DNA of 64,000 bases from an uncultured Candidatus Binatia bacterium (GCA_964291295.2 OZ219754.1:1728001-1792000); one strand, 5' to 3'. Shown: positions 11,805 through 23,728, counted from the first letter of the stretch. Notes: generated by a model from the letters alone, not told the origin. Made by a program: numbers and translations.

Positions 11805-13307
11805 TCAGGCGATCACTGCCGCAATCGCTCGTCCGATCTTCATTCGGGTCCACCGGTATTGATGCTTCATGCGGGACACCTTATCTTCTCGTGGCGTCTC
11901 GGCGAACGGGTACTGGGGCCTGCCGCCTTCACCAAGCCCCTGGCGATCACCATGCGAGAATTCGCAACTGGCCACGCACCGGCTCGGATGTTCGAAGGGT
12001 TCGGTTCGTGCCTCCACGAAACGGTGCTCGAACGACCATTGGCCGGCGGTCGGTACGTCGTCGTGCCACCAGTCCTCGCCGATCAGGTAGCGGACAAGCA
12101 TTCGTGTCTGCTCGGCCGCCACGGCGCCACAGAACCCGATCGTGTTCTGGCCTGGTTCCGGCCCGTCCGCAATACCGTCGTTGATGTAGCGCCCGTGACG
12201 CCTGATGCCCATGCGCTCGTCTCGGGCATCGCTGCTGGTGTACTGACCGCGACAACGTAGGCATTTCATGTCGGGGCCAATCAGGTGGACCTGCCACTTC
12301 GCAGACAACAGGCGCTCCCGCGACTCCACGAGAACGCCGCCGTCGATCAACGGAAGGCAGTTTGCATAGGCGAGGTGATTGAGAACCTCGCGCGCCTCAG
12401 CGTTGTCGACACAGCACACGATGACGGCGGCGTCGGCGGCCAAACGGTACGCGCGCTCGGTGCGGATGGACAAGGGCACCGGGCGCATGACCGGACGCCG
12501 TGCAGCGGCGATTCTGCGAAGGTGAGCCACGGCCACCTCCGCTTTGGGCAATCCCAGGCAGTGCCGATCGGCGTAGATCAGGCGATCGAGGTTCTTTTGC
12601 TCGACTAGGTCCGGGTCAATAACGGTGATCTCCTCGAACCCGGTGCGTGCTAGATATTCGAGCACCAGCGAACCCACACTCCCCGCACCGACGACGCAGA
12701 CATGCGTGCGCGCCAGCCGTGACTGTGCCGCGATACCCCAGCTGTCGATGGTCCTCACCAAGTTCGAGCGCCGAGCGTAAGGTGGATACGCATCCGGATG
12801 CCAATCCACTCCCGTATGACGCGGCCCGATCCGCCGAACTTCCGTGCAAGGCACAGGGACGATCCGGCCATGCGCGGACTGCCGCCAGAAGCGCGCGCTC
12901 CAGACACCGTTCGAACCTATCGTCAGCCCGAGCAGGGGCAGGCCGGTCTCTCGAATGAAGGGCGCAATGGTGTTGCGCTCTGTATCGTCGTCCATGCCGG
13001 TCAGACCCTGCCAACCGGGAGCAGGGTGGCTGTGAAGGACCGCGATGCCCGCTTGGGCTTTGACCGCATGATCCAGCACCCGGTTCAGGTATTGGCCGTG
13101 CACCGTGACGTTGCTGTTTAGATCGCGATCGCCGTTTTCCGGGAAGAATGCCTTGCCGAGGATTCCTGTGTAGCTGTCAAGTCCGTCGGCCCGGCGCCAC
13201 AGTGCGAGGCATGCCTCCTCCTGTATCCCACCGTGCTGCAGGCCCCTGAGCAGGTGATCCGCGAACTGCCGGTGCAGCACTTCGCGCAGGACGACGCGGT
13301 GCCTCAA
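11805..13307 (-). CDS. JAB-like peptidase / ThiF-family E1 fusion (BubCD-like)
   Basis: TTG start overlaps the upstream TGA (TTGA). N-terminal EEAC...HSHPAPGWQGLTGMDD (JAB HxH...[S/T]xxD). C-terminal VVGAGSVG, IDPD, KNLDRL, CVDN..AR, CLRC and CVASC. Confidence 0.85.
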   Translation of the reverse strand: MRHRVVLREVLHRQFADHLLRGLQHGGIQEEACLALWRRADGLDSYTGILGKAFFPENGDRDLNSNVTVHGQYLNRVLDHAVKAQAGIAVLHSHPAPGWQGLTGMDDDTERNTIAPFIRETGLPLLGLTIGSNGVWSARFWRQSAHGRIVPVPCTEVRRIGPRHTGVDWHPDAYPPYARRSNLVRTIDSWGIAAQSRLARTHVCVVGAGSVGSLVLEYLARTGFEEITVIDPDLVEQKNLDRLIYADRHCLGLPKAEVAVAHLRRIAAARRPVMRPVPLSIRTERAYRLAADAAVIVCCVDNAEAREVLNHLAYANCLPLIDGGVLVESRERLLSAKWQVHLIGPDMKCLRCRGQYTSSDARDERMGIRRHGRYINDGIADGPEPGQNTIGFCGAVAAEQTRMLVRYLIGEDWWHDDVPTAGQWSFEHRFVEARTEPFEHPSRCVASCEFSHGDRQGLGEGGRPQYPFAETPREDKVSRMKHQYRWTRMKIGRAIAAVIA

Positions 13308-13729
13308 CGAGCGCTCCAGATTCTGCGGATGTGCCTGTCCAGGTAGACGCTCATGTTCTTTCCGTTTGGTGTGTCGATCCGATCCCAGAAATCGTTCGGC
13401 GGAGCGCTGATCACCATCCAGTGGCGCCCCTCCGCACATGGATAGGTCTCTACAACTCCCGGCGGCCGGGCTCCCCGCACCTGCTCGGCCAGAACAGCAT
13501 CCGGCGGCGAGATGTACACCCAGTGCGGTGCCACTTCGGGCCACTTCCCCTCGTTCTCGTGGACGGCGACCGCCAAGGTTACGGTTTCCCCGGCGCGGCT
13601 GCCGTCCTTGATCCGGTATTCGAAACGGACGCCGTCCGCGCCGCCCTGTTGCTCTGGCGCGGTGAAGGGTCCCGGTCGGTAGCGCAGACCGAAGAGTTCG
13701 GCTGCCATGCGTTCAGAGTTCTGGCTCAT
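13304..13729 (-). CDS. Prokaryotic E2/UBC-like protein (family E, BubB-like)
   Basis: WPEVAPHWVYISP and WMVISAPPNDFW...YLDRHIRRIW resemble prokaryotic E2 family E; lies between Ubl and E1 with 4-bp overlaps. Confidence 0.65.
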   Translation of the reverse strand: MSQNSERMAAELFGLRYRPGPFTAPEQQGGADGVRFEYRIKDGSRAGETVTLAVAVHENEGKWPEVAPHWVYISPPDAVLAEQVRGARPPGVVETYPCAEGRHWMVISAPPNDFWDRIDTPNGKNMSVYLDRHIRRIWSAR

Positions 13730-13968
13730 GCGAACGGCGCCCCCTTCTCCGGGGCCGCCCGAAACACGTTGTGCTCGTCGAGGTTCGCTTGTTGACCCGA
13801 AACGAAAGTCACCTCCGAGTCCGGCACCCGCAGTACGTAGCCGGTCTTGTCGGGATCCCCACCGATTGCTTTCCCCTTGAACGCGATCCGCAACAACACG
13901 GCCGCGTCGACCGACCGCCGGTCCGTGAAGAACGTTTCGCCGTTCACCTTGAACTCGTACTGTTCCAT
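13726..13968 (-). CDS. Ubiquitin-like (multiubiquitin-type beta-grasp) protein, BubA-like
   Basis: 80 aa; YEFKVNGETF...LLRIA...YVL...V..GQQANL...VFRA pattern; GGAGG RBS; first gene of the operon. Confidence 0.7.
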   Translation of the reverse strand: MEQYEFKVNGETFFTDRRSVDAAVLLRIAFKGKAIGGDPDKTGYVLRVPDSEVTFVSGQQANLDEHNVFRAAPEKGAPFA

Positions 13969-14033
13969 GGCAGCCTCCTGTCAGTCATTTTGGGTGTGCG
14001 ATTTCTGGCACGCTCAGGCATTCTGTATCCATG

Positions 14034-14104
14034 AAGATAGCAGTCGCTGGAGGTGTCGTCAACTTATGGTTGACATTTCGATATATTATACATAGAATGT
14101 CAAC
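14034..14104. promoter_or_regulatory. Back-to-back sigma70 promoters with GTTGAC half-site operator array
   Basis: Plus strand TTGACA(14070-75)-N17-TAGAAT(14093-98). Minus strand TTGACG(14062-57)-N17-TATCTT(14039-34). GTCAAC-N5-GTTGAC palindrome at 14058-14074 and GTTGACATT/AATGTCAAC inverted pair at 14069-14104. Confidence 0.75.
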
Positions 14105-14128
14105 CCTTAGGGAAAGGAGGGTCTGGGG

Positions 14129-15208
14129 GTGTTCGGACAACGACTTCGGCTGGCCCGCAAACGGGCAGGTCTTTCAATGCGCGAACTCGCGGACGTGATG
14201 ACCCCGAGGGTGACCGCTCAGGCGATCAGCAAGTACGAGGCGGACAGGATGCTGCCCTCTTCCGCTGTACTAGTCGGGCTAGGCAAGACTCTTGATGTCT
14301 CGCTGGATTTCCTCATGAGCGGACAGTTCGAGGCGCTTGACGGTGTGGAGTTCCGAAAGCATTCCAGTGCGTCGGCTCGTGACCGCGCCAAGGCCGAAGC
14401 GATCCTGATCGACAGCCTGGAGCGTTATCTGGCCATCGAGCACATCCTCGACATACCCTCCGACGCGGGCTGGATCGAGGGGTGCCGTTACGACAGTGTC
14501 GCAAGCGAAACCCAGATCGACGAGAGGGCCGATGAGCTTCGCAACGCCTGGGGTCTTGGCATGGATCCAATTCCCAGCTTGTGCGAATTGCTCGAAGACA
14601 AGAACATCAAGGTGGTCGCAGCCGACCTGCCCGAAAGCATCAACGGTCTTTCATGCCACGTTCGGCGGGGTGGCAAGACCGTTGCCGAGGCCGTCATGGT
14701 GTCCAGCCGGATCAATGTCGAGCGGAAACGTTTTACGCTCGCCCACGAACTGGCCCACAGGATCATTCGTTCTACGGGAAACCCGGCGATCAATGTGGAG
14801 GCGGCCATAAACCGGTTCGCTGGCGCATTCCTCGTTCCCGGCCAACGTCTGCGGGACGAGGTGGGCCACGACCGCCATCGGATTACGTACTACGAGATCA
14901 TTCGCCTGAAACACATGTACGGCGTCTCCGCGGCGGCCGTCCTGGTTCGTCTGGGGCAGGTTGGTGCATTGCCCTCCGCTGCCATCGAACGTGCCTTCGC
15001 AACCTTCGCCCACTCCTGGCGCAAGTCGGAACCGGATCCCATCGGCGAGGATCACGGGTTCGCAGCCTTCGAAAAGCCACACCGTTTCAAATGTCTAGTG
15101 TCTCATGCGGTGGGCGAGGAGTTGATTTCGCCGGTGCGTGCAGCGGCACTTCTCAACCAGTCGCTTGACTCCGTCGAGCAACAGATCAGCGGTCCGATGA
15201 TCCAGTGA
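14129..15208 (+). CDS. XRE-family HTH fused to ImmA/IrrE (M78) metallopeptidase
   Basis: N-terminal RLRLARKRAGLSMRELA...QAISKYE HTH; RKRFTLAHELAH (HExxH) and EAAINRFAGAFLVP; AGGAGG RBS. Confidence 0.9.
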   Translation: MFGQRLRLARKRAGLSMRELADVMTPRVTAQAISKYEADRMLPSSAVLVGLGKTLDVSLDFLMSGQFEALDGVEFRKHSSASARDRAKAEAILIDSLERYLAIEHILDIPSDAGWIEGCRYDSVASETQIDERADELRNAWGLGMDPIPSLCELLEDKNIKVVAADLPESINGLSCHVRRGGKTVAEAVMVSSRINVERKRFTLAHELAHRIIRSTGNPAINVEAAINRFAGAFLVPGQRLRDEVGHDRHRITYYEIIRLKHMYGVSAAAVLVRLGQVGALPSAAIERAFATFAHSWRKSEPDPIGEDHGFAAFEKPHRFKCLVSHAVGEELISPVRAAALLNQSLDSVEQQISGPMIQ

Positions 15209-15714
15209 CGTGCGTCATCGTCAACGATGCTTCCTGCCTGATCGATCTCCGCGAGGGTGATCTGCCTGCCGCCCTTGGTGATCTCCCTTATCGAATCGTG
15301 GTTCCGCTGCCGGTGCGCGCAACCGAAGTGCTCGATCTGTCCGAGCACCAGTGGCGAGCGCTCGATGACGCAGGGATGATCACGCACGATCTCACACCGG
15401 AGGATGTCGGTCAGGCCCTCCGGCTCAAGGGTGGCCACCCCGGCCTCTCTGCGAACGACTGCTTCTGTCTTGTCACCGCGCGGGCTTGCTCCGGCATTCT
15501 GCTGACGGGCGATGCCCTGCTACGCACGGTCGCCCTCGCTGACGGCTTGCAGGTACACGGCGTGCTTTGGGTCGTGGACGAACTCGACTCTGCAGGAATC
15601 TGTTCCAGATCGTTACTTGCTCGAGCCCTCAAGGTCTGGCAAGAGGACGTCAGCGTCTTCTTGCCGGAACAGGAGATCTCTCTACGCCTGAAACGCCTCT
15701 CGGAAGCCCGGTAG
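15205..15714 (+). CDS. PIN-domain protein (DUF3368-like)
   Basis: IVNDASCLIDL, LSANDCFCL, LLTGDALLR, VHGVLW; GTG overlaps the upstream TGA. Confidence 0.8.
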   Translation: MTCVIVNDASCLIDLREGDLPAALGDLPYRIVVPLPVRATEVLDLSEHQWRALDDAGMITHDLTPEDVGQALRLKGGHPGLSANDCFCLVTARACSGILLTGDALLRTVALADGLQVHGVLWVVDELDSAGICSRSLLARALKVWQEDVSVFLPEQEISLRLKRLSEAR

Positions 15715-16236
15715 CGGAGGCAACGATGATGACAAGGCACCCGTGCCGAATGGATCAACCCGGACTGACGGCCGCACAGACCACCTGCCTCGCAATCTCG
15801 CCTGCCGGAGCAACGCCGCCACCGCCATCGTCCGCTGCAACCGTCGCTTCCGCTGCTTGCCCGAAGCCAACCGCCAACTATGCCGCCCGGGCCCAGGACG
15901 CCCTCGACGCCATCCTCATCGCTCCCACCGCCTGAAACACACCCCACGCCGCCCCACCCTCGCTGCCCGGTGCCGGGCTCCCCTCTGCCCGTCAACTGGC
16001 CTTGACCTTCACTTTCGCTTGGTGAAACCGCCCTCCATACCCGCCCATACTTCCTCTCCCTCTGCCCCCTGTATGCGCCATCGCCCTCTTCCCTCTCCTG
16101 AACCCGGAGCTATGAATCATCCCTGCGCACAGCCCTTGCCATCCGATCCTCTTCTGCGCCATATTGTCCGTCAGGCGAAAGGGGCGCCCTCGTCACGGGG
16201 GTGCTCGATACGGGACCAACGACCGGACAGGCTGCC

Positions 16237-17676
16237 ATGCTGACCCGTCTTGAAGTGGACGGCTTCAAGAATCTGGTCGATTTTTCCATCGATTTCGGCC
16301 CATACACCTGCATTGTCGGACCGAATGGAATCGGGAAATCGAACATATTCGATGCCATCGTTTTTTTGTCGCGTCTGGCCGATAAACCCATCATTGAGGC
16401 AGCTGCCGCTGTCCGCACCGGCTCCGGTGATTTGGATCGGATCGACGATTTGTTTTTCCGCAGCGGCCCTGTGCGCAAGAACTCGTTCAAGATAGCAGCA
16501 GAGATGTTGGTGGAGCGCCGCATTTCCGACGATTTCGGACGTCCCGGGACAGCCACGTCCACCTTTCTTCGTTATGAGATAGAAATCGGGAAAAAAGCAA
16601 AGAGTCGAAGCGACATCGCCCACCCTCTCGACATCGAACTGCGGTCGGAGTCCCTTTATCCTATCCGCAAGGGAGACGCCGCGAAAAAGCTGCGGTTCCC
16701 GCATTCGAAGTTTAAATTCAGGGATCGAGCGGTGCAAAACCACAGATTCACCAGAGCCGGCTATATTTCCACCGAAAACGGCATTGGCAAAGAGGCAGAG
16801 ATCGTTGTTCACCAAGATGGTGGTTCCAGGGGACCTGGGCAAAAAGCCCCTGCCCGCGGTGCGCCTCGGACGATTGTCGGAACGACCAACACCATCGCAA
16901 CCCCGACAATTCTCGCTGCACGGCGGGAAATGCAACGTTGGCGTTTGCTGTCCTTGGAGCCAAGTGCTATGCGCCGCCCGGATCGCCTGGGCCGCGATCC
17001 CGATATGGTCTCAGACAATGGAGCCCATCTCGCCGCTGCTCTTTACCGGCTCAAGAACGCTGAAGCAAGCGGCATCGATGCTATCGCAAATATTTCATCG
17101 AGGTTATCGGAACTTGTTCCTGTTACCCGCATTGATGCGATTCGCGATGAGACTCGCCAACTCCTGACATTGGAAGTCACCGAACGCGATGGCCAGCAAT
17201 TTTCGGCAAGTGCCATATCAGACGGGACTTTGCGGTTTCTCGCTCTTGCGATATTGGCGGAGGATCCAAAGGCTCAGGGCCTGCTTTGCATGGAAGAGCC
17301 CGAGAACGGCGTTCATCCAGAACGTTTGGAATCCATGGCCAACCTGATACGAGACATGGCAGTGGATGCCGGCGATGAACTGGACGACGACAATGTCATG
17401 CGTCAGGCAATTGCAGCGACACATTCTCCTTATTTTCTCCAGCTTCAGAACGAGGACGATATATTGCTGGCAAAGGAAATTGTTCGACGACATGAGAGTC
17501 AACCGATACCGGTTCTGCGGTGCTATCCGCTGACAAGGACTTGGCGCGCCAAGTTGGGCGAACCAAATTTGGCCCTTGGCCTGTCCACGATATTACCCTA
17601 TCTCAGTCCGCCGGCTGGCGCTCAATTGAAGCTACCACTGCCACTTCAGCCACATCCGCCGGTTGCAATACCATGA
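16237..17676 (+). CDS. ABC/AAA_21-type ATPase (defence-associated type)
   Basis: MLTRLEVDGFKNL, Walker A GPNGIGKSN, ISDGT signature, CMEEPENGVHP, ATHSP; lower GC than the backbone. Confidence 0.88.
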   Translation: MLTRLEVDGFKNLVDFSIDFGPYTCIVGPNGIGKSNIFDAIVFLSRLADKPIIEAAAAVRTGSGDLDRIDDLFFRSGPVRKNSFKIAAEMLVERRISDDFGRPGTATSTFLRYEIEIGKKAKSRSDIAHPLDIELRSESLYPIRKGDAAKKLRFPHSKFKFRDRAVQNHRFTRAGYISTENGIGKEAEIVVHQDGGSRGPGQKAPARGAPRTIVGTTNTIATPTILAARREMQRWRLLSLEPSAMRRPDRLGRDPDMVSDNGAHLAAALYRLKNAEASGIDAIANISSRLSELVPVTRIDAIRDETRQLLTLEVTERDGQQFSASAISDGTLRFLALAILAEDPKAQGLLCMEEPENGVHPERLESMANLIRDMAVDAGDELDDDNVMRQAIAATHSPYFLQLQNEDDILLAKEIVRRHESQPIPVLRCYPLTRTWRAKLGEPNLALGLSTILPYLSPPAGAQLKLPLPLQPHPPVAIP

Positions 17677-18326
17677 ACGGGAGAATTGTCCGATTTGCCT
17701 TGATTTGCGAAGGAAATTCGGACAAGGCTCTCGTCGAACACCTTCAAGGCCTATTGATTTATTGTGGGGCAGCAGAAGCTGTCGGCGTAGCGGTTTCCCA
17801 GTCGTCGATAAGGCCATTGAAGACCGGGGCGACGAGGGCGATCGGCGATAAGATTCGAGCGTTTCTGTCGTTCGATTCGGAATATGATCTTCTGTTCATC
17901 CACAGGGACACAGACAATATGAATTATGAAAGCAGATTTGCGGAAATCGAGAGCGGAATGGCCGGAGTCCAAGTAACTTTCTTCTGGATTCCAGCGATTC
18001 CGGTGAGGGAGACGGAGGCTTGGCTTCTGCTGGATGAGGCGGCAATCCGAAGGGCCGCCGGCAACCCGAGAGGAAAGGTGCCTCTCGGGTTGCCAGAACC
18101 CGTCCGGATAGAGGATGTTGCAAACCCAAAGGAGGTTCTCAGGACAGCGCTTTCGACCGCCAGCGGCCAGCAAGGGGGACGTTTGCGGAGATTCAAGAAG
18201 AAGTTCTCGCAGCAAAGACGTAGTCTTTTGGAACAACTACCCGTCGGTGGCCCTTTGGAACATGTCCCGGCATGGTGCCGACTGAAGCGGGCCGTGGAGG
18301 ATTTCGTGAGTGCTCCCGCCGAATAG
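17673..18326 (+). CDS. TOPRIM-like DUF4276/RloB-type protein
   Basis: ICEGNSD, FIHRDTD, PVRETEAWLL motifs; ATGA overlap with the ATPase. Confidence 0.75.
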   Translation: MNGRIVRFALICEGNSDKALVEHLQGLLIYCGAAEAVGVAVSQSSIRPLKTGATRAIGDKIRAFLSFDSEYDLLFIHRDTDNMNYESRFAEIESGMAGVQVTFFWIPAIPVRETEAWLLLDEAAIRRAAGNPRGKVPLGLPEPVRIEDVANPKEVLRTALSTASGQQGGRLRRFKKKFSQQRRSLLEQLPVGGPLEHVPAWCRLKRAVEDFVSAPAE

Positions 18327-18507: not shown

Positions 18508-21381
18508 TCACTCCCTTGGCGGGAACTCGAATCCGACCTTGCCGCGGTTGCCGAGGGTGAGCCAGGCGGCGAAGGGCCGGCCGGACCTGGACGAGATGAA
18601 GTTCGGCAGGAGTTCGGTCTTTCCTTCGGCCAGCAGCCGGGTCATCTCGGCCCGTTCCAGGGGCTGATCGAGGATGACGGTGGCGGTCTTGAAGCGGCAG
18701 GGTCGCGTCTCCGCCTGAAAGTTCTCGCATACGTACTCGCGGTTCCACTCGAAGACCCGGCCGTCGCACCGGGGGCACTGGCCCAAGGATTCCTGACCCG
18801 AGAAGTCGGCCTTGACCGCCGGTTTGCCCCCGGCGCTATCGGCCTTCTTCCTGTCGGGGCGCGGTTCGAACTCGAAGCTCACCTTGCCTTCCTTCATCAC
18901 CAGGAAGGCCTTGAATGAACGGCCGGTGCGCGACGACACGAATCCCGTCAGGAGATCGGTCTTTCCTTCCGCCAGCAGTTTCGCCATCTGTTCCCGCGCC
19001 ACTTCCTGGCGCAGGATGACCCTGCCGGAACCGAACTCGCAGGTGCGTGCGTCGCCGGTGGCGTGCTCGCATACGTAGCGCATGGCCAGCTCGAACACGC
19101 GGCCGCCGCACCGGGGGCATGATCCGAGGGGTTCCTGGCCGGTGAAGTCCGGGGCGCCCTCGACTTCGCCGTCGCCGTTTCGCGATTCGCCGCCGAAGTC
19201 GAACGCGATGCGGAACTCGGGGGACAGTTTCAGCACGGCGGCGAACGGTCGCCCCTGGCGGCTGCGGAATCCCTGCAACGGATCGGTCTGGCCGTTCTCG
19301 ATCAACGTTTCGATTTCCTTGGCCCCGAGCAGCCGCCCGGCCAGGATCTTGGGCAGGTTCACCTCGCAGTTCGTGCACTGGTAGTTCCGGTAGCGCTCGT
19401 GCACCTCGCCCCCGCACCTGGGGCATGGCACCGAGAGGGAGCCGAAGTCGCCCGGAATGGTGTCGTGCTCGTACTGCCGCGCCCGGTCCACGATCTGCCG
19501 GGTCATCTGGGCGATTTCGGCCATGAACTCGTCGCGGCTCTTCTTGCCGCCCTGCATCTGGAACAGCTGGTATTCCCAGTTGCCGGTGAGTTCGGGCCGG
19601 GTGAGTTCCCGGACGCCGAGACCGTTGAGCAGTTCCATGAGCATGAAGGCCTTGGAGGTGGCATGGAGTTCCTTGCCCTCCCGAACGAGGTAGTCCTCGT
19701 CCAGGAGCCCTTCGATGATCGACGCCCGGGTGGCGGAAGTGCCGAGGCCCTTGCCGGCCATGGCCGCGCGCAGATCGTCATCCGTGACCAGTCGGCCCGC
19801 CCCTTCCATGGCGCCGAGCAGTGTGGCTTCGGTGAGCCGCGCCGGCGGCCGGGTCTCGCTCTGCTTGACGTCGACGCCGAGAGTTTCGACCTGCACGGGA
19901 GGGTCGTCGGCCTTCCGGCCCGGCACCATCGTCGCTCCGGACGCACCGGCCCTCGTGGGCGCCGAGGTCGTTCCGTTTGCCTTCAGGGGTGCCAGCGTCT
20001 CGTCCCCCCGCTTCTCGGCGCTCTTGCCATGGACCTCCAGCCAGCCCGCCTTGACCAGGACCTTGCCGGTGGTCTTGAAGGGCTCGCCTTCCACCCGCGT
20101 GATCCGGGTGGTCTCCAGGAATTCGGCGGCGGGGTGGAAGATCGCCAGGAAGCGCCGGGTCACCACGTCGTAGATTCGCTGCTCGATCTCGTTCAGGCGC
20201 CTGGGCGCCTCGGTGGTGGGGATGATCGCGAAGTGGTCCGATACCTTGGCGTTGTTGAAGATGCGCTTGTTGGGCCTGACCCAGCCGTTTTCCAGGATGG
20301 CGCCGGCGAATGGTGCGTACTCCGTGCCCTTGAGCATCTCGAGCGACTCCTTGACCGTGTTCACGTAGTCCTCGGGCAGCGCCCGGGAGTCGGTACGCGG
20401 GTACGTCAACACCTTGTGCCGTTCGTACAGGGTCTGGGCGACCTGCACGGTGCGCCTGGCGCTCAGGCCGAAACGGGCGTTGGCCTCGCGCTGGAGGCTG
20501 GTGAGGTCGAACAGGGGCGGCGGCGCCTGGCGGGTGGGCTTGCTCTCCTCCGTCGCGCTGCCGGCCTGGTCCAGACACTTCTCCCGGATGGCCTCGGCCG
20601 CGGCCTGCTCCCAGATCCGTTCGGCGCGGGCATTGGGTTCGCTGTCCTTTTTCCGGAATCCTTCGTTGAACCACCGTCCCTCATACACGCCGCCCTCGGA
20701 CCTGAAGGTGGCCGTGACCTCCCAGTAGGGCTCGGGTTGGAAATCCCGGATGGCGGCCTCGCGCTCCACCACGATGGCAAGGGTGGGCGTCTGCACCCGG
20801 CCCACGGTGGTCTTGTAGAAGCCGCCGGGCTTGGAGTTGAACGCGGTCATGGCGCGGGTGCCGTTGATGCCCACCAGCCAGTCGGCCTCGGAACGGCTCA
20901 GGGCGGCGTCGGCGAGGGGCTGCATCTCCTCGTCCTCCCGAAGCGTCCCGAACCCGTTGCGGATGGCGTCGGGGGTCATGGACTGGAGCCACAACCGCTT
21001 GATGGGCTTCTTTGCCTTGGCATGGCGGACGATGTTCCGGAAGATGAGTTCACCCTCCCGTCCGGCGTCGCAGGCGTTGACCAGGGCGTCCACGTCCTTG
21101 CGCTTCATCAGCTTCACCAGCAGCTTGAGCCGGGAAGCGTTCTTCTCGATGGGCTTGAGATCGAAGTGGGGCGGTATCACCGGCAGGTTCGCGAAGCTCC
21201 ACTTGCCGCGCTTCGCCTCCACCCCCTCCGGCGGAGTCTGCTCCAGAAGGTGGCCCACCGCCGAGGACAGCACGTACGCGTCGCTCTCGTAGTAGTCCTT
21301 GTGCCGCTTGAAGCCGCCCAGGGCCTTGGCCACATCCGCGGCCACCGAAGGCTTCTCCGCGATGATCAGTGCCTTGCTCAT
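18508..21381 (-). CDS. topB: DNA topoisomerase III
   Basis: MSKALIIAEKPSVA, NACDAGREGELIF, GRVQTPTL, TYPRTDS (catalytic Tyr), C-terminal CPRC and SRxGRxFxA repeats. Confidence 0.93.
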   Translation of the reverse strand: MSKALIIAEKPSVAADVAKALGGFKRHKDYYESDAYVLSSAVGHLLEQTPPEGVEAKRGKWSFANLPVIPPHFDLKPIEKNASRLKLLVKLMKRKDVDALVNACDAGREGELIFRNIVRHAKAKKPIKRLWLQSMTPDAIRNGFGTLREDEEMQPLADAALSRSEADWLVGINGTRAMTAFNSKPGGFYKTTVGRVQTPTLAIVVEREAAIRDFQPEPYWEVTATFRSEGGVYEGRWFNEGFRKKDSEPNARAERIWEQAAAEAIREKCLDQAGSATEESKPTRQAPPPLFDLTSLQREANARFGLSARRTVQVAQTLYERHKVLTYPRTDSRALPEDYVNTVKESLEMLKGTEYAPFAGAILENGWVRPNKRIFNNAKVSDHFAIIPTTEAPRRLNEIEQRIYDVVTRRFLAIFHPAAEFLETTRITRVEGEPFKTTGKVLVKAGWLEVHGKSAEKRGDETLAPLKANGTTSAPTRAGASGATMVPGRKADDPPVQVETLGVDVKQSETRPPARLTEATLLGAMEGAGRLVTDDDLRAAMAGKGLGTSATRASIIEGLLDEDYLVREGKELHATSKAFMLMELLNGLGVRELTRPELTGNWEYQLFQMQGGKKSRDEFMAEIAQMTRQIVDRARQYEHDTIPGDFGSLSVPCPRCGGEVHERYRNYQCTNCEVNLPKILAGRLLGAKEIETLIENGQTDPLQGFRSRQGRPFAAVLKLSPEFRIAFDFGGESRNGDGEVEGAPDFTGQEPLGSCPRCGGRVFELAMRYVCEHATGDARTCEFGSGRVILRQEVAREQMAKLLAEGKTDLLTGFVSSRTGRSFKAFLVMKEGKVSFEFEPRPDRKKADSAGGKPAVKADFSGQESLGQCPRCDGRVFEWNREYVCENFQAETRPCRFKTATVILDQPLERAEMTRLLAEGKTELLPNFISSRSGRPFAAWLTLGNRGKVGFEFPPRE

Positions 21382-21636
21382 GTGGATGTCTCGATTCGGT
21401 GTCTTGATGGGGGTCTCAACAGGGTCTCGATTCGGCGGAAACCCGCACGGGGTCCGCTCCCTCCGCGCCTCCGGCGCGAGCGTGTGAACAGTGCATATGT
21501 CCAAATAGAACATACCTGTCAAGGCGGCGCGGGCAAGCCGTTCGCGGTGCGGGGTGAATCGTTGTAGAAATGGATCGTCGGCCCCCACGGTCCGGGGCAA
21601 GACCGCTTTCGTGGCTCCTGAAGGAGGAACGGACCC

Positions 21637-22464
21637 ATGCCCAATGTGAAGTGCGCCACCGGCGTCGACCTCCATTATGAGACCTTCGGCGAGGGCGAAC
21701 CGCTGATCTTCGTGCCCTCCACCGCCTATTCCGGCGAGGTCTGGAAGCCTTCGCAGATGCCGCTGGCGGATTCCCTGAACCTCATCTTTCACGACCCCCG
21801 GGGGTGCGGGCGCTCGGTGGCGCAGCAGAGCGTCTACACCATCGAACTCATGGCCATGGACGTCGTGGCGCTGATGGACCATATCGGCTGTGCTTCGGCC
21901 CACCTCATCGGCCACTCCATGGGAGGGCGCATCGCGTTGTCCCTGGCCCAGAACTTTCCCGGCCGGATCAAGAGCCTGATCATGGCGGCCGCGGGCTCGG
22001 GCACCGCGGGCCGGGCCGGGCCGGACTGCGTTCCGGGTCTGCCCCATGAACTGGTCCACGAGTTGGTGAGCAAGGGCTTCGAGAAGTTCGTTCGCGACGA
22101 GATCGTGGACTCGGACACCTTTTTCACCGCGGACTACCGGGACAGCCATGGCGACCGGGTGGAGGCCTTCTACCAACTCGCCTGGGAGACCCATGCCAGG
22201 CTGCCGGAGTTCATTCATCTGATCATGGCACGCCACAGCTTCGAGGGCACCCATCGTCTCCAGGACGTGAAGTGCCCGACCCTGGTGCTGATCGGCGACG
22301 GCGACACCGTGGGCAGCAACCACGTGGCCCAGGCCCGGGTGCTGGCGGACCGGATCCCCGGTGCCGAGCTCCAGGTTCTGGCGGGACAAACCCACGGGTT
22401 CTTCTGGCAGGACCCGGCGCTTGCCAACGACGCGATCCTGTCCTGGGTGAAGCGTCAGAGTTGA
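21637..22464 (+). CDS. Alpha/beta fold hydrolase
   Basis: DPRGCGRS, GHSMGG, THGFF; GGAGG RBS. Confidence 0.88.
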   Translation: MPNVKCATGVDLHYETFGEGEPLIFVPSTAYSGEVWKPSQMPLADSLNLIFHDPRGCGRSVAQQSVYTIELMAMDVVALMDHIGCASAHLIGHSMGGRIALSLAQNFPGRIKSLIMAAAGSGTAGRAGPDCVPGLPHELVHELVSKGFEKFVRDEIVDSDTFFTADYRDSHGDRVEAFYQLAWETHARLPEFIHLIMARHSFEGTHRLQDVKCPTLVLIGDGDTVGSNHVAQARVLADRIPGAELQVLAGQTHGFFWQDPALANDAILSWVKRQS

Positions 22465-22510
22465 CGCGCCGCCCTGCCGGAACGCCGAGCCGACCCTTCT
22501 TCCGGTCTTC

Positions 22511-23728
22511 ATGCCGCATCAGGCTGCCCGGCCGAGTTTCTGGACGCGCACGTTCATCCTGTTGAGCGCGTCGCAGTTCCTTGCCTACGGGCACCATGCC
22601 GCGCTGACGCCCACGCTGCCCCTGTATCTGGACCACTTGGGCAGTTCGCCTTTCATGGTGGGCCTGCTGCTGGCCTGCTTCAGCGCCACCAGCGTGGTGA
22701 TCCGGCCGCTGGTGGGTACATGGGTGGACTCCGGGGGCGAGCTTCGGGTCCTCGGTCTGAGTTGCCTCGGCCTGTGCGTGACCGTGCTGATCTTCATCGT
22801 CCCCAATGTCGAAGGCGCCTTTGCAGCCAACCTCCTGCGGGGTTTTTCCTGGGCCGGCATCAATACCAGCGGCTATGCGTTCCTGGCCGCGGTGGTGCCC
22901 CCCGACCGCAGGGGTGAGGCCAGCGGTTATTACTCCGGCATCCAGAGCAGCGCCTCCCTGTTCTTTCCCCCGGCGGCGTTGTGGATCATCGGCCTCCCGG
23001 CGGGCGGCCATGCCGCGGTTTTCGTCGTATCCAGCGCCGCCGCGCTGCTGGCGGCCGTGCTGGCACGGGCATGCGGCCGGAGTGTGCGCCGCGGTCCCGC
23101 GCCGCCCGCCCCGGCCGTCGTCGCCCGTCCCGCCGCCCGTCCTGTCCGCCGGTGGCGGAACTGTTTCGACCGGGGAATCCTGTTCACGGCCCTGCTGCTC
23201 TTCTGCATGAACCTGCCCTGGTCGGGCCTCAATTCCTTCATCGTCCTGTATGCCCGGGAGGTGGGCATCGAGAACCTGGGCTGGTACTTCGCGGCCATCG
23301 GACTGGCCAGCGTCGTGGGCCGGCCGCTGCTCGGCCGGGTGTCGGACAAGGTCGGCCGCGGGCCTGCGGTGGCGGCGGCCTATGTGCTGGAGATCGCCGG
23401 CGTCGCTCTGGTGCTGCTGGCGTCCGACGTCACCGTGATGGCGCTTGCGGGAGCGTTGTACTTCTTCGGCTATGCCCTGGGTGTTTCGACTACGCTGGCC
23501 CTGGCCATGGAGCGGGGCGACCCCAAGCGCCGCGGTGTCACCATGGCCACCTTCTCCATGGCGTTCCCGCTGGGCTCCGGGCTGGGATCGGCCCTCTCCG
23601 GCGGCGTGATCGCGGTGGCGGGGTACCGCGGCATGTACATGAGCATGGTCGGGGTGCTGGCGTCGGGGTTGGTGCTGTCTCTGTGCAATCGGGCGGCGTT
23701 GACCGCGCCGGCGCGCCCGGCCGCGTGA
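22511..23728 (+). CDS. MFS transporter
   Basis: About 12 hydrophobic segments; GRVSDKVGR, RRGEASGY. Confidence 0.88.
   Translation: MPHQAARPSFWTRTFILLSASQFLAYGHHAALTPTLPLYLDHLGSSPFMVGLLLACFSATSVVIRPLVGTWVDSGGELRVLGLSCLGLCVTVLIFIVPNVEGAFAANLLRGFSWAGINTSGYAFLAAVVPPDRRGEASGYYSGIQSSASLFFPPAALWIIGLPAGGHAAVFVVSSAAALLAAVLARACGRSVRRGPAPPAPAVVARPAARPVRRWRNCFDRGILFTALLLFCMNLPWSGLNSFIVLYAREVGIENLGWYFAAIGLASVVGRPLLGRVSDKVGRGPAVAAAYVLEIAGVALVLLASDVTVMALAGALYFFGYALGVSTTLALAMERGDPKRRGVTMATFSMAFPLGSGLGSALSGGVIAVAGYRGMYMSMVGVLASGLVLSLCNRAALTAPARPAA

Follow-up and report, generated by a model that had tools for sequence, protein, structure and literature searches.

Within a window of 64,000 nucleotides (the whole stretch of DNA analysed) from an uncultured Candidatus Binatia bacterium (GCA_964291295.2 OZ219754.1:1728001-1792000), positions 11,805 to 15,714 hold a compact five-gene cassette of ~3.9 kb. 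Three minus-strand genes, referred to here as the triad, encode a ubiquitin-like protein (Ubl), an E2-like protein and a fusion of a JAB peptidase with an E1 domain (JAB-E1). Two further genes diverge from them on the plus strand: one encodes an XRE helix-turn-helix (HTH) domain fused to an M78 zinc peptidase (XRE-M78), and the other a PIN-domain nuclease. The triad is probably a cysteine-free ubiquitin-like conjugation pathway of the bacterial ubiquitination-like (Bub) lineage, from a branch absent from the Bub catalogue, which would act through a relay of Ubl transfers and be co-regulated with the neighbouring pair. The features of the cassette are as follows.

11805–13307, minus strand: JAB-E1 fusion gene, 500 amino acids, TTG start overlapping the E2 stop (from translation)
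12798–13307, minus strand: JAB/JAMM peptidase domain of JAB-E1, residues 1 to ~170, with E30, H92, H94, T103 and D106 (from alignment with BubCD)
12087–12749, minus strand: E1 adenylation (ThiF) domain of JAB-E1, residues 187–407 (from Pfam)
13304–13729, minus strand: E2-like gene, 141 amino acids (open reading frame (ORF) call)
13726–13968, minus strand: Ubl gene, 80 amino acids (ORF call and ribosome-binding site)
13969–14128, no strand: control region common to both directions, 160 bases (inverted repeat and promoter)
14129–15208, plus strand: gene for the XRE-HTH and M78 (ImmA/IrrE) zinc-peptidase fusion, 359 amino acids (Pfam and PADLOC)
15205–15714, plus strand: PIN-domain nuclease gene, 169 amino acids, with a 4-base overlap with the XRE-M78 gene (Pfam on the family)

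The original prediction described three genes coupled by 4-bp overlaps and encoding 80, 141 and ~500 amino acids, and both the ORFs and the junctions were confirmed. The junctions are ATGA (Ubl/E2) and TTGA (E2/JAB-E1), in the contexts ...GCATGAGC... and ...CGTTGAGG..., each a 4-base overlap, and GGAGG lies 7 bases ahead of the Ubl ATG. A 579-amino-acid ORF from GTG 13544 was rejected as the JAB-E1 gene, given that it traverses the E2 gene. Against related loci, the median ratio of nonsynonymous to synonymous differences per site (pN/pS) is 0.24 for the Ubl gene (31 pairs) and 0.29 for the E2-like gene (24 pairs), with a median pS of ~0.55–0.58 for both, which places synonymous sites near saturation. 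The triad consists of genuine genes that evolve under purifying selection. Only one copy of the JAB-E1 gene occurs in its own genome, which is 99% complete. Three DNA runs from one study contain this stretch, and no RNA run is listed as containing it.

Proteins of the triad

Sequence comparison connects the JAB-E1 protein with Bub. A phmmer search of PDB sequences gave Citrobacter BubCD (9ea4_A) as the best match (E 2.7e-20; query residues 4–329), spanning the peptidase and E1 parts, and a profile search of the PDB recovered BubCD at E 4.5e-25. Pfam recognises ThiF only (3.2e-35, residues 187–407), with no JAB match even at E ≤ 10. The JAB and ThiF/E1 motifs that had been read from the sequence (GAGSVG, NLDR, CLRC) are present and conserved: E30, H92-S-H94, T103, D106, G207-A-G-S-V-G212, N239-L-D-R242 and C349-L-R-C352 are invariant or nearly so across 20 aligned relatives. 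The JAB residues E30, H92, H94 and D106 are invariant both in 20/20 relatives and in a six-sequence alignment with canonical BubCD-like proteins, and position T103 is serine in most of the 20. After the BubCD numbering was corrected for a 2-residue offset of the PDB chain, E30 corresponds to BubCD E28, H92/H94 to H91/H93, D106 to D104 and R242 to R227. These BubCD residues were mutated or seen binding zinc (Ye et al., bioRxiv 10.1101/2024.11.21.623953). The E1 domain also carries D301, and C349, C352, C444 and C448 form a MoeB/ThiF-type four-cysteine zinc site.

The crossover loop of JAB-E1 contains no cysteine between C352 and C393 and has two invariant tyrosines, Y356 and Y374. The latter is invariant in 20/20 relatives and shares its column with two BubCD-like proteins from plasmid DUF6527 operons, and from these alignments we take Y374 to be the counterpart of the catalytic Y370 of Citrobacter BubCD. 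At its C-terminus, JAB-E1 has a basic and hydrophobic tail of ~40 residues (about 460–500; 11805–11930, minus strand), ending ...RMKIGRAIAAVIA. This tail is kept in the clade, has a different wording in an actinobacterial relative and is absent from two canonical BubCD-like proteins. It might be a membrane-binding or partner-binding helix; hydrophobic extensions have been described on BubE (Ye et al.).

The E2-like protein was assigned through its predicted fold. Its AlphaFold2 (AF2) model has a mean predicted local distance difference test (pLDDT) score of 93.2, and a VIA-align comparison with 48,161 representative chains placed Citrobacter BubB first (9eav_D, Z 8.8, root-mean-square deviation 3.8 Å, 118 aligned residues), a value little above the Z of 7–8 that is common for unmatched models and that tempers the assignment. 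Entries below BubB are, by their titles, nearly all E2, UEV, Atg3/Atg10, UFC1 and RWD-type folds (E2/UEV at Z 4.5–7.4). The predicted E2 fold draws its weight from BubB ranking first and from the consistency of the entries beneath it. The protein has 126 relatives, none with a Pfam domain and all named "hypothetical" where they are named at all. A profile search of 1.84 billion representatives gave 108 matches, consisting of proteins of ~125–130 amino acids and proteins of 200–290 amino acids in which the domain follows a Ubl-like part. Among 35 of those distant matches, Prok-E2_E touches three at E ≤ 0.01 and passes in one (28.5 bits, cut-off 25). The "E2 family-E-like motifs" of the original prediction are thus linked to Prok-E2_E through distant relatives and fold, and not through any Pfam match in the protein itself. 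Prok-E2_E gave two weak matches in 401 genomes of the same phylum, none above the cut-off. An Atlas look-up placed "hypothetical protein" clusters nearest, one with Prok-E2_E on 18% of its members (score 0.90), which is a lead only.

Across 52 close and distant relatives of the E2-like protein, down to 22% identity, only P68, S108 and W115 are invariant, and H69 is nearly so. The family motifs are PHW and S-x-P-P-x-D-F-W-D, there is no conserved cysteine, and S108 (52/52) occupies the usual E2 cysteine position. When aligned with the E2/UBC proteins of two canonical plasmid operons, S108 falls tentatively on the serine of their S-x-H motif and H69 on an aspartate. At low identity, the alignment puts histidine at the BubB D299 position and proline at the H335 position (S108-A-P-P), such that the S333/H335/D299 set of Type I Bub is not kept; the constellation differs also from the Lys+His of Type II Bub. 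S108 is kept with other neighbours, and therefore the serine would be retained with helpers arranged unlike both described Bub types.

The same residues bear on whether the protein is an enzyme at all. A catalytically dead UBC/RWD-type adaptor that only binds Ubl, with Ubl adenylated or transferred without an E2 step, has been proposed for operon type 6e (Iyer et al., 2006), and the lack of a conserved cysteine, the loss of the BubB His/Asp arrangement and the UEV domains among the structural matches would suit it. This is very unlikely here, since the BubB serine is required for conjugation (Ye et al.) and the conservation of S108, P68 and H69 over such divergent relatives is hard to explain for a pure adaptor.

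The AF2 model of Ubl is a beta-grasp fold (mean pLDDT 87.5; residues 77–80 below 50), such that the fold checks suggested for the 80- and 141-amino-acid proteins gave predicted beta-grasp and UBC models, as anticipated. In Foldseek, the top seven rows for the Ubl model are bacterial multi-ubiquitin proteins and Citrobacter BubA (E 2.7e-3 to 1.5e-2, TM-score on the query (TMq) 0.56–0.68), ranking above ubiquitin. Ubl has 209 relatives at E ≤ 1e-3. Its C-terminus reads ...FRAAPEKGAPFA, and the final five residues, GAPFA, are invariant in 32/32 aligned relatives. Relatives in three loci (L031, L033 and L036) carry 6–7 variable residues beyond GAPF[S/A]. Four actinobacterial plasmid relatives end APVA, AQVA or GGVA, with no glycine at the G76 position, and Ubl-E2 fusions of the same E2 clade carry the motif G-x-T-P-V-[AS] ahead of the linker; canonical split BubA proteins end in glycine. 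The mature end of Ubl is thus most likely Ala80, an alanine following P-[F/V], and not a glycine. On the simplest reading, JAB cuts after that alanine where Ubl has an extension or fusion. The Ubl of this locus needs no trimming, yet the JAB site is fully kept, which points to a further role for JAB, most plausibly as a deconjugase that stands in for BubE.

A JAB peptidase, an E1 and a small beta-grasp protein whose short tail can be removed also occur together in sulfur-carrier or cofactor pathways of the CysO/Mec+ or QbsE/QbsD type (Iyer, 2006), in which Ubl would be trimmed by JAB and thiocarboxylated by E1, and the E1 retains the MoeB/ThiF-type zinc site. Such a function has very little probability for this locus. 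Neither the cassette nor its flanks contain a rhodanese or biosynthetic gene, a UBC-fold partner is invariably encoded, Ubl has no GG end, the genome has separate ThiF/MoeB-like genes, and the cassette is mobile, with hosts in many phyla.

BubE and the proposed pathway

According to the Bub papers, all Bub operons encode BubE, a DUF6527 serine protease (Ye et al.). The operon had been called complete, which does not hold in the Bub sense: PF20137 (DUF6527) gave 0 matches in the own genome and 0 in five further cassette-bearing genomes, and the positive control genome (Caulobacter) scored. Furthermore, no DUF6527 is annotated in the six actinobacterial plasmid loci viewed. The Bub catalogue was assembled from DUF6527-containing operons (Gong et al.), and therefore a branch lacking BubE would be absent from it. 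In the literature searched, which left preprint supplements and subscription papers outside, there was no account of a BubE-less branch, an alanine-ended Ubl, or a Bub triad accompanied by a fused XRE-M78/RNase toxin pair.

Recent loss of bubE, in this genome, from an otherwise ordinary Type I Bub operon would also account for a missing DUF6527 gene. Canonical split forms do exist on Mesorhizobium and Rhizobium plasmids, where separate multi-ubiquitin and E2/UBC genes accompany JAB-E1 and DUF6527. Given that DUF6527 is missing from 6/6 cassette-bearing genomes searched, and that the entire clade departs from Type I in the E2 motif, Ubl end, JAB-E1 tail and Pfam recognition, a recent loss is extremely improbable.

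In the pathway favoured here, the E1 domain of the 500-amino-acid protein would adenylate the flexible tail of the 80-amino-acid Ubl. Ubl would then pass to the crossover-loop Y374, from there to S108 of the 141-amino-acid UBC-fold protein and finally to target lysines, so that the intermediates would be oxyesters. The mature Ubl would end at Ala80 in the conserved tail A-P-F-A. The N-terminal JAB would trim the extended or fused Ubl precursors of relatives, and would probably also remove the tag in this BubE-less branch. The chemistry is probably that already known for Bub. The central element of the original prediction, a Ubl/E2-like/JAB-E1 conjugation cassette closest to Bub, was upheld, by BubCD in sequence and by BubA/multi-ubiquitin proteins and BubB in fold.

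Several observations weigh against this pathway. The evidence is wholly computational. No Foldseek row for Ubl reaches E ≤ 1e-3, and for the E2-like model Foldseek returned nothing at E ≤ 0.001 (the best-probability rows being Ube2W, TSG101 UEV and DR_1245), such that the UBC fold call comes from VIA-align. Neither Ubl nor the E2-like protein has a Pfam match, even at E ≤ 10, or a PADLOC match, and none of the Multi_ubiq, Prok-E2_E and Prok-JAB calls that had been expected fires. Profile searches of PDB sequences found no BubA with the Ubl family, and no BubB with the E2 family or with the E2 family plus fusions. The HMMER alignment to BubCD ends at residue 329, which makes the mapping of Y374 to Y370 indirect; the mapping of S108/H69 to BubB S333/D299 comes from a 9-sequence alignment at 15–16% identity. 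In addition, G76 lies four residues from the Ubl end, and cleavage after G76 is possible. As to function, Bub had been linked to antiphage immunity, but according to Ye et al. and EMBO J 2026 (PMC13373217) protection is not established even for canonical Bub operons, and phage protection by any of them is yet to be demonstrated; a defence role of the present cassette would be conjectural.

Regulator, nuclease and genomic setting

It had been stated that no effector or target gene follows the triad, which overlooked the conserved divergent XRE-M78 + PIN pair at 14129–15714. The 160-base spacer between the two directions contains an inverted repeat, GGTTGACA-N-TGTCAACC, at 14063–14077 / 14096–14110, with 15-base arms that are 87% complementary. 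In 18 aligned spacers, the GGTTGACA and TGTAAAC(C) half-site blocks are the best conserved parts. A sigma-70-like promoter directed toward the XRE-M78 gene (TTGACA-17-TAGAAT, 14070–14098, 11/12) lies inside the palindrome, and a weaker minus-strand site (TTGACG-17-TATCTT, 14062–14034) is directed toward Ubl.

XRE-M78 matches Pfam Peptidase_M78 (4.4e-15) and HTH_3 (1.3e-9) and, in PADLOC, RmrA (best 4.5e-41, with fourteen RmrA models matching), capP (3.4e-14) and capH (1.3e-4). Its HEXXH motif (H206-E207..H210) is invariant in 20/20 relatives. The PIN protein belongs to a family in which 20/20 members match Pfam PIN at E ≤ 0.1 (best 6.2e-7; the window copy, at 0.0081, is below the cut-off), with invariant residues D8, E41, D85, D103 and D125. 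A three-chain structure prediction, comprising XRE-M78, the E2-like protein and PIN as partner, scored the PIN/XRE-M78 pair at 0.65, and the best of three controls scored 0.01. The docking mark is reached by 116/157 solved complexes and 2/215 mismatched pairs, a calibration that holds only roughly because custom alignments and three chains were used. The runs had at least 80% of contacts in common, with a partner pLDDT of at least 78. The predicted contacts of PIN are with the HTH domain and C-terminal helix of XRE-M78 and involve PIN residues around the acidic site, so that the modelled interface is what an antitoxin would form. All confident PIN contacts in these runs were with XRE-M78, and on its replacement the PIN/E2-like score was 0.00 with 0 contacts, which gives neither support for nor evidence against a PIN/E2-like interaction.

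XRE-M78 probably represses the control region and serves as antitoxin to PIN. It would most likely silence both divergent promoters and hold the PIN toxin in an inactive state. On a stress or phage signal the XRE-M78 peptidase would fire, switching on the Ubl pathway and freeing the nuclease at the same time. Similar associations have been reported for related genes. CapH+CapP adjoins Bub operons (EMBO J 2026, PMC13373217), 31% of catalogued Bub operons carry CapH+CapP (Ye et al.) and ~70% of multi-ubiquitin genes adjoin Xre+COG2856 pairs (Kopfmann et al., 2016, PMC4963859). Relatives of another Bub-associated regulator pair have been co-opted to control a VapC-type PIN toxin (EMBO J 2026, PMC13373217).

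How firmly the triad is tied to the pair was examined in other genomes. A locus scan with one genome per species gave 36 loci with an E2-like gene (loci are numbered with the prefix L), all in metagenome-assembled genomes. Their hosts are labelled as more than 10 phyla, and the labels include Latescibacterota, Gemmatimonadota, Acidobacteriota, Spirochaetia, Thermodesulfobacteriota, Dadabacteria, Chloroflexota, and Alpha- and Gammaproteobacteria. Protein identity within the cassette is 50–85%, which for a compact cassette conserved across so many phyla suggests that it is probably mobile and under selection; the pattern points to horizontal spread within a common habitat. All three triad genes are present at ≥94% coverage in 31/36 loci. 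XRE-M78 occurs in the same divergent position at ≥70% identity in 31/36 (one of them cut by a contig end), the Ubl/XRE-M78 spacer measures 151–153 bases in most loci, and PIN is matched in 27/36, at ≥90% coverage in 23. Outside the five genes the flanks are unconserved, with nothing recurring in more than 4 of the 36 loci.

Where this XRE-M78 is replaced, another regulator may be present. Two loci (L029 and L033) have unrelated HTH-M78 genes beside the triad. Among six actinobacterial plasmid loci, whose JAB-E1 is at ~35% identity, 5/6 have an M78 or HTH-M78 gene; two of these genes have a HigB/RelE toxin as partner, and for a third the same position is taken by an unassigned 122-amino-acid gene.

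A number of the copies show other arrangements or decay. In L029 (2297–5164) a divergent DUF6932 + HTH-M78 + Beta_protein operon lies by the triad. In L031 (3242–9152) a subtilase gene (Peptidase_S8, 745 amino acids) and an 89-amino-acid ORF precede the triad in its own orientation, and a gene for a SEC-C-motif protein follows it. The copies in L032, L034 and L035 are decayed, L034 with ~4 kb inserted between the E2-like and JAB-E1 genes, and decay is seen as well in L055, L061, L072, L074, L075, L088, L104 and L119. In some loci, only fragments of the triad are left next to an XRE-M78 + PIN pair that is itself intact.

The reverse search gives a different picture of the pair, and here the evidence turns against a tight linkage. 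The XRE-M78 family has 211 relatives, of which the best 80 (66–86% identity, a few limited by contig ends) were viewed. In these, the whole triad is present in 26, one or two triad fragments in 8 and none of the triad in 46; the last group divides into 24 loci with PIN and 22 without. In L052 the XRE-M78 + PIN pair stands alone between radA and yaaA, and in a PIN-less group (L111) a GmrSD-type nuclease lies downstream. The GmrSD arrangement includes a conserved divergent ORF of ~140–167 amino acids with no known family, present in 14 loci. The five-gene block was consequently rejected as an obligate unit. Like CapH+CapP or CapW, the sensor/antitoxin pair is an autonomous module, and the XRE-M78 family has the look of a modular sensor/regulator that serves several kinds of defence cargo. 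By contrast, the triad is almost never seen without such a regulator.

These data could describe two unrelated modules side by side, i.e., an autonomous RosmerTA-type pair (XRE-M78 + PIN) and a hitch-hiking Bub-like triad, with no common regulation or function. The triad-less loci, including the radA/yaaA copy, carry XRE-M78(+PIN) at equal identity, the PIN gene is broken or absent beside a kept triad in five loci (L007, L017, L021, L024 and L025), and the Xre+COG2856 pair has been read merely as a stabiliser of the multi-ubiquitin cassette (Kopfmann et al., PMC4963859). We nevertheless regard two unconnected modules as unlikely. The association with a regulator extends to the loci with unrelated HTH-M78 genes and to the distant plasmid relatives, the spacer length and palindrome are conserved despite near-saturated synonymous sites, and split CapH+CapP has been shown to regulate adjacent operons (Ye et al.; PMC13373217).

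Since the pair occurs without the triad, the link between them is most likely regulatory, and our reading is common regulation, with the toxin belonging to the regulator module. By the same token, the pair can do without the triad, and any mechanistic coupling that goes further than common regulation is unproven; tagging might be tied to the toxin by direct biochemistry, but this has no support. The boldest version of such a link would make the Ubl pathway and the toxin-antitoxin pair a single switch. After XRE-M78 fires, the relay would ligate Ubl to XRE-M78, to the PIN (or actinobacterial HigB) toxin or to a phage protein, thereby locking the toxin on or off. This is distinctly improbable. 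If true, a bacterial toxin-antitoxin module would for the first time be seen under the control of ubiquitin-like conjugation, and this Ubl would be the first natural one whose activated C-terminal residue is alanine.

The cassette stands in an islet of ~6.7 kb between an MFS (major facilitator superfamily) transporter, which is the next gene after JAB-E1, and a type IA topoisomerase. The GC content at 12–18 kb is 0.52–0.64, compared with ~0.67–0.73 outside. Besides the five genes, the islet holds a PADLOC candidate system, HEC-01:

16201–17676, plus strand: AAA_15/AAA_21 ATPase (HEC-01A, 1.8e-99)
within 16201–18326, plus strand: DUF4276 protein (HEC-01B, 2.2e-22)

The HEC-01B match begins only at residue 58 of the listed ORF, and the true start is therefore probably ATG 17673; an ATG at this position would overlap the ATPase stop by 4 bases. 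In L001, a pair 40–42% identical to the HEC-01 genes lies ~2.6 kb past the JAB-E1 gene. The "defence island" of the original prediction is a fair description in this small sense only, namely the islet with its cassette and HEC-01 candidate. The PADLOC check proposed for the locus likewise succeeded in part, silent on Ubl and the E2-like protein and returning RmrA/capP/capH on XRE-M78 together with the HEC-01 pair. In NCBIfam, no cut-off was reached for any of seven proteins (the triad, XRE-M78, PIN and the two HEC-01 proteins). The topoisomerase ORF (18508–22512, minus strand, 1334 amino acids) has Toprim from residue 382, and its ~380 N-terminal residues have no Pfam match; this part may reflect an ORF called too long in GC-rich DNA, or it may be a genuine extension.

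Comparison with known systems

The Bub pathway was described in 2024, and its chemistry is known, whereas its targets and biological role are not. To this, the branch would add (i) a minimal three-protein version with JAB as the only peptidase, (ii) another residue set around the E2 serine and a tag apparently ending in alanine, and (iii) a clear regulatory context, namely a fused sensor-repressor that apparently restrains an RNase toxin as well. The questions raised are which signal switches on a Bub-type pathway, whether tagging is joint with a nuclease and whether such an E1 needs a glycine end on its Ubl.

The pair resembles the toxin-antitoxin defence system RosmerTA (RmrT/RmrA; Millman et al., 2022), in which an HTH + Zn-peptidase antitoxin gene is followed by an overlapping small toxin-like gene. 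XRE-M78 is also predicted to cover the active site of the toxin. Unlike in RosmerTA, the PIN nuclease matches no PADLOC RmrT model, and the pair has its control region in common with the Ubl operon.

CapH and CapP are said to have been described by Lau and colleagues in 2022 as regulators of cyclic oligonucleotide-based antiphage signalling systems (CBASS). With these the locus shares an HTH repressor and an M78 peptidase beside an immune-type operon, and the capP and capH models match the two halves of XRE-M78. Unlike CapH + CapP, the two activities here form a single polypeptide. XRE-M78 additionally appears to be an antitoxin for the PIN nuclease, which parallels the VapKSC offshoot of CapK/CapS (PMC13373217).

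Among conjugation systems, Bil (bacterial ISG15-like) likewise encodes Ubl, E2, JAB and E1 together. Bil differs in its cysteine thioesters, separate JAB (BilC) and E1 with tandem adenylation domains, and no Bil protein appeared among the JAB-E1 matches in the phmmer and profile searches of the PDB. In the summary given by Ye et al., Bil is the sole bacterial Ubl pathway with a demonstrated antiphage mechanism.

The closest known system is Type I Bub (Citrobacter sp. RHBSTW-00271 BubAB-BubCD-BubE; formerly 6E.1; Iyer, Burroughs and Aravind, 2006, row 6e). Both have a JAB-E1 that is homologous across its two domains with equal JAB and adenylation residues, a crossover loop with an invariant tyrosine (Y370 in Bub) and no cysteine, a UBC-fold E2 with serine replacing cysteine, and a multi-ubiquitin-type beta-grasp Ubl. 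An HTH + M78 regulator lies nearby in each, and the distribution of both is mobile and sporadic. The differences are that BubE/DUF6527 was not found here; that Ubl and E2 are separate genes, whereas Type I has a BubAB pre-protein cut by JAB after a conserved glycine; that the Ubl tail is A-P-F-A in place of glycine; that the E2 motif is PHW / S-x-P-P in place of D / S-x-H; that JAB-E1 has an extra C-terminal tail; that the regulator is one fused XRE-M78 protein accompanied by a PIN toxin; and that the Pfam Multi_ubiq (PF14452), Prok-E2_E (PF14462) and JAB models do not detect the proteins. Four defining Type I features fail, namely BubE, the BubAB fusion with its glycine site, the His/Asp partners of the E2 serine, and Pfam recognition. 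The system is nonetheless clearly homologous to Type I Bub and would work like it.

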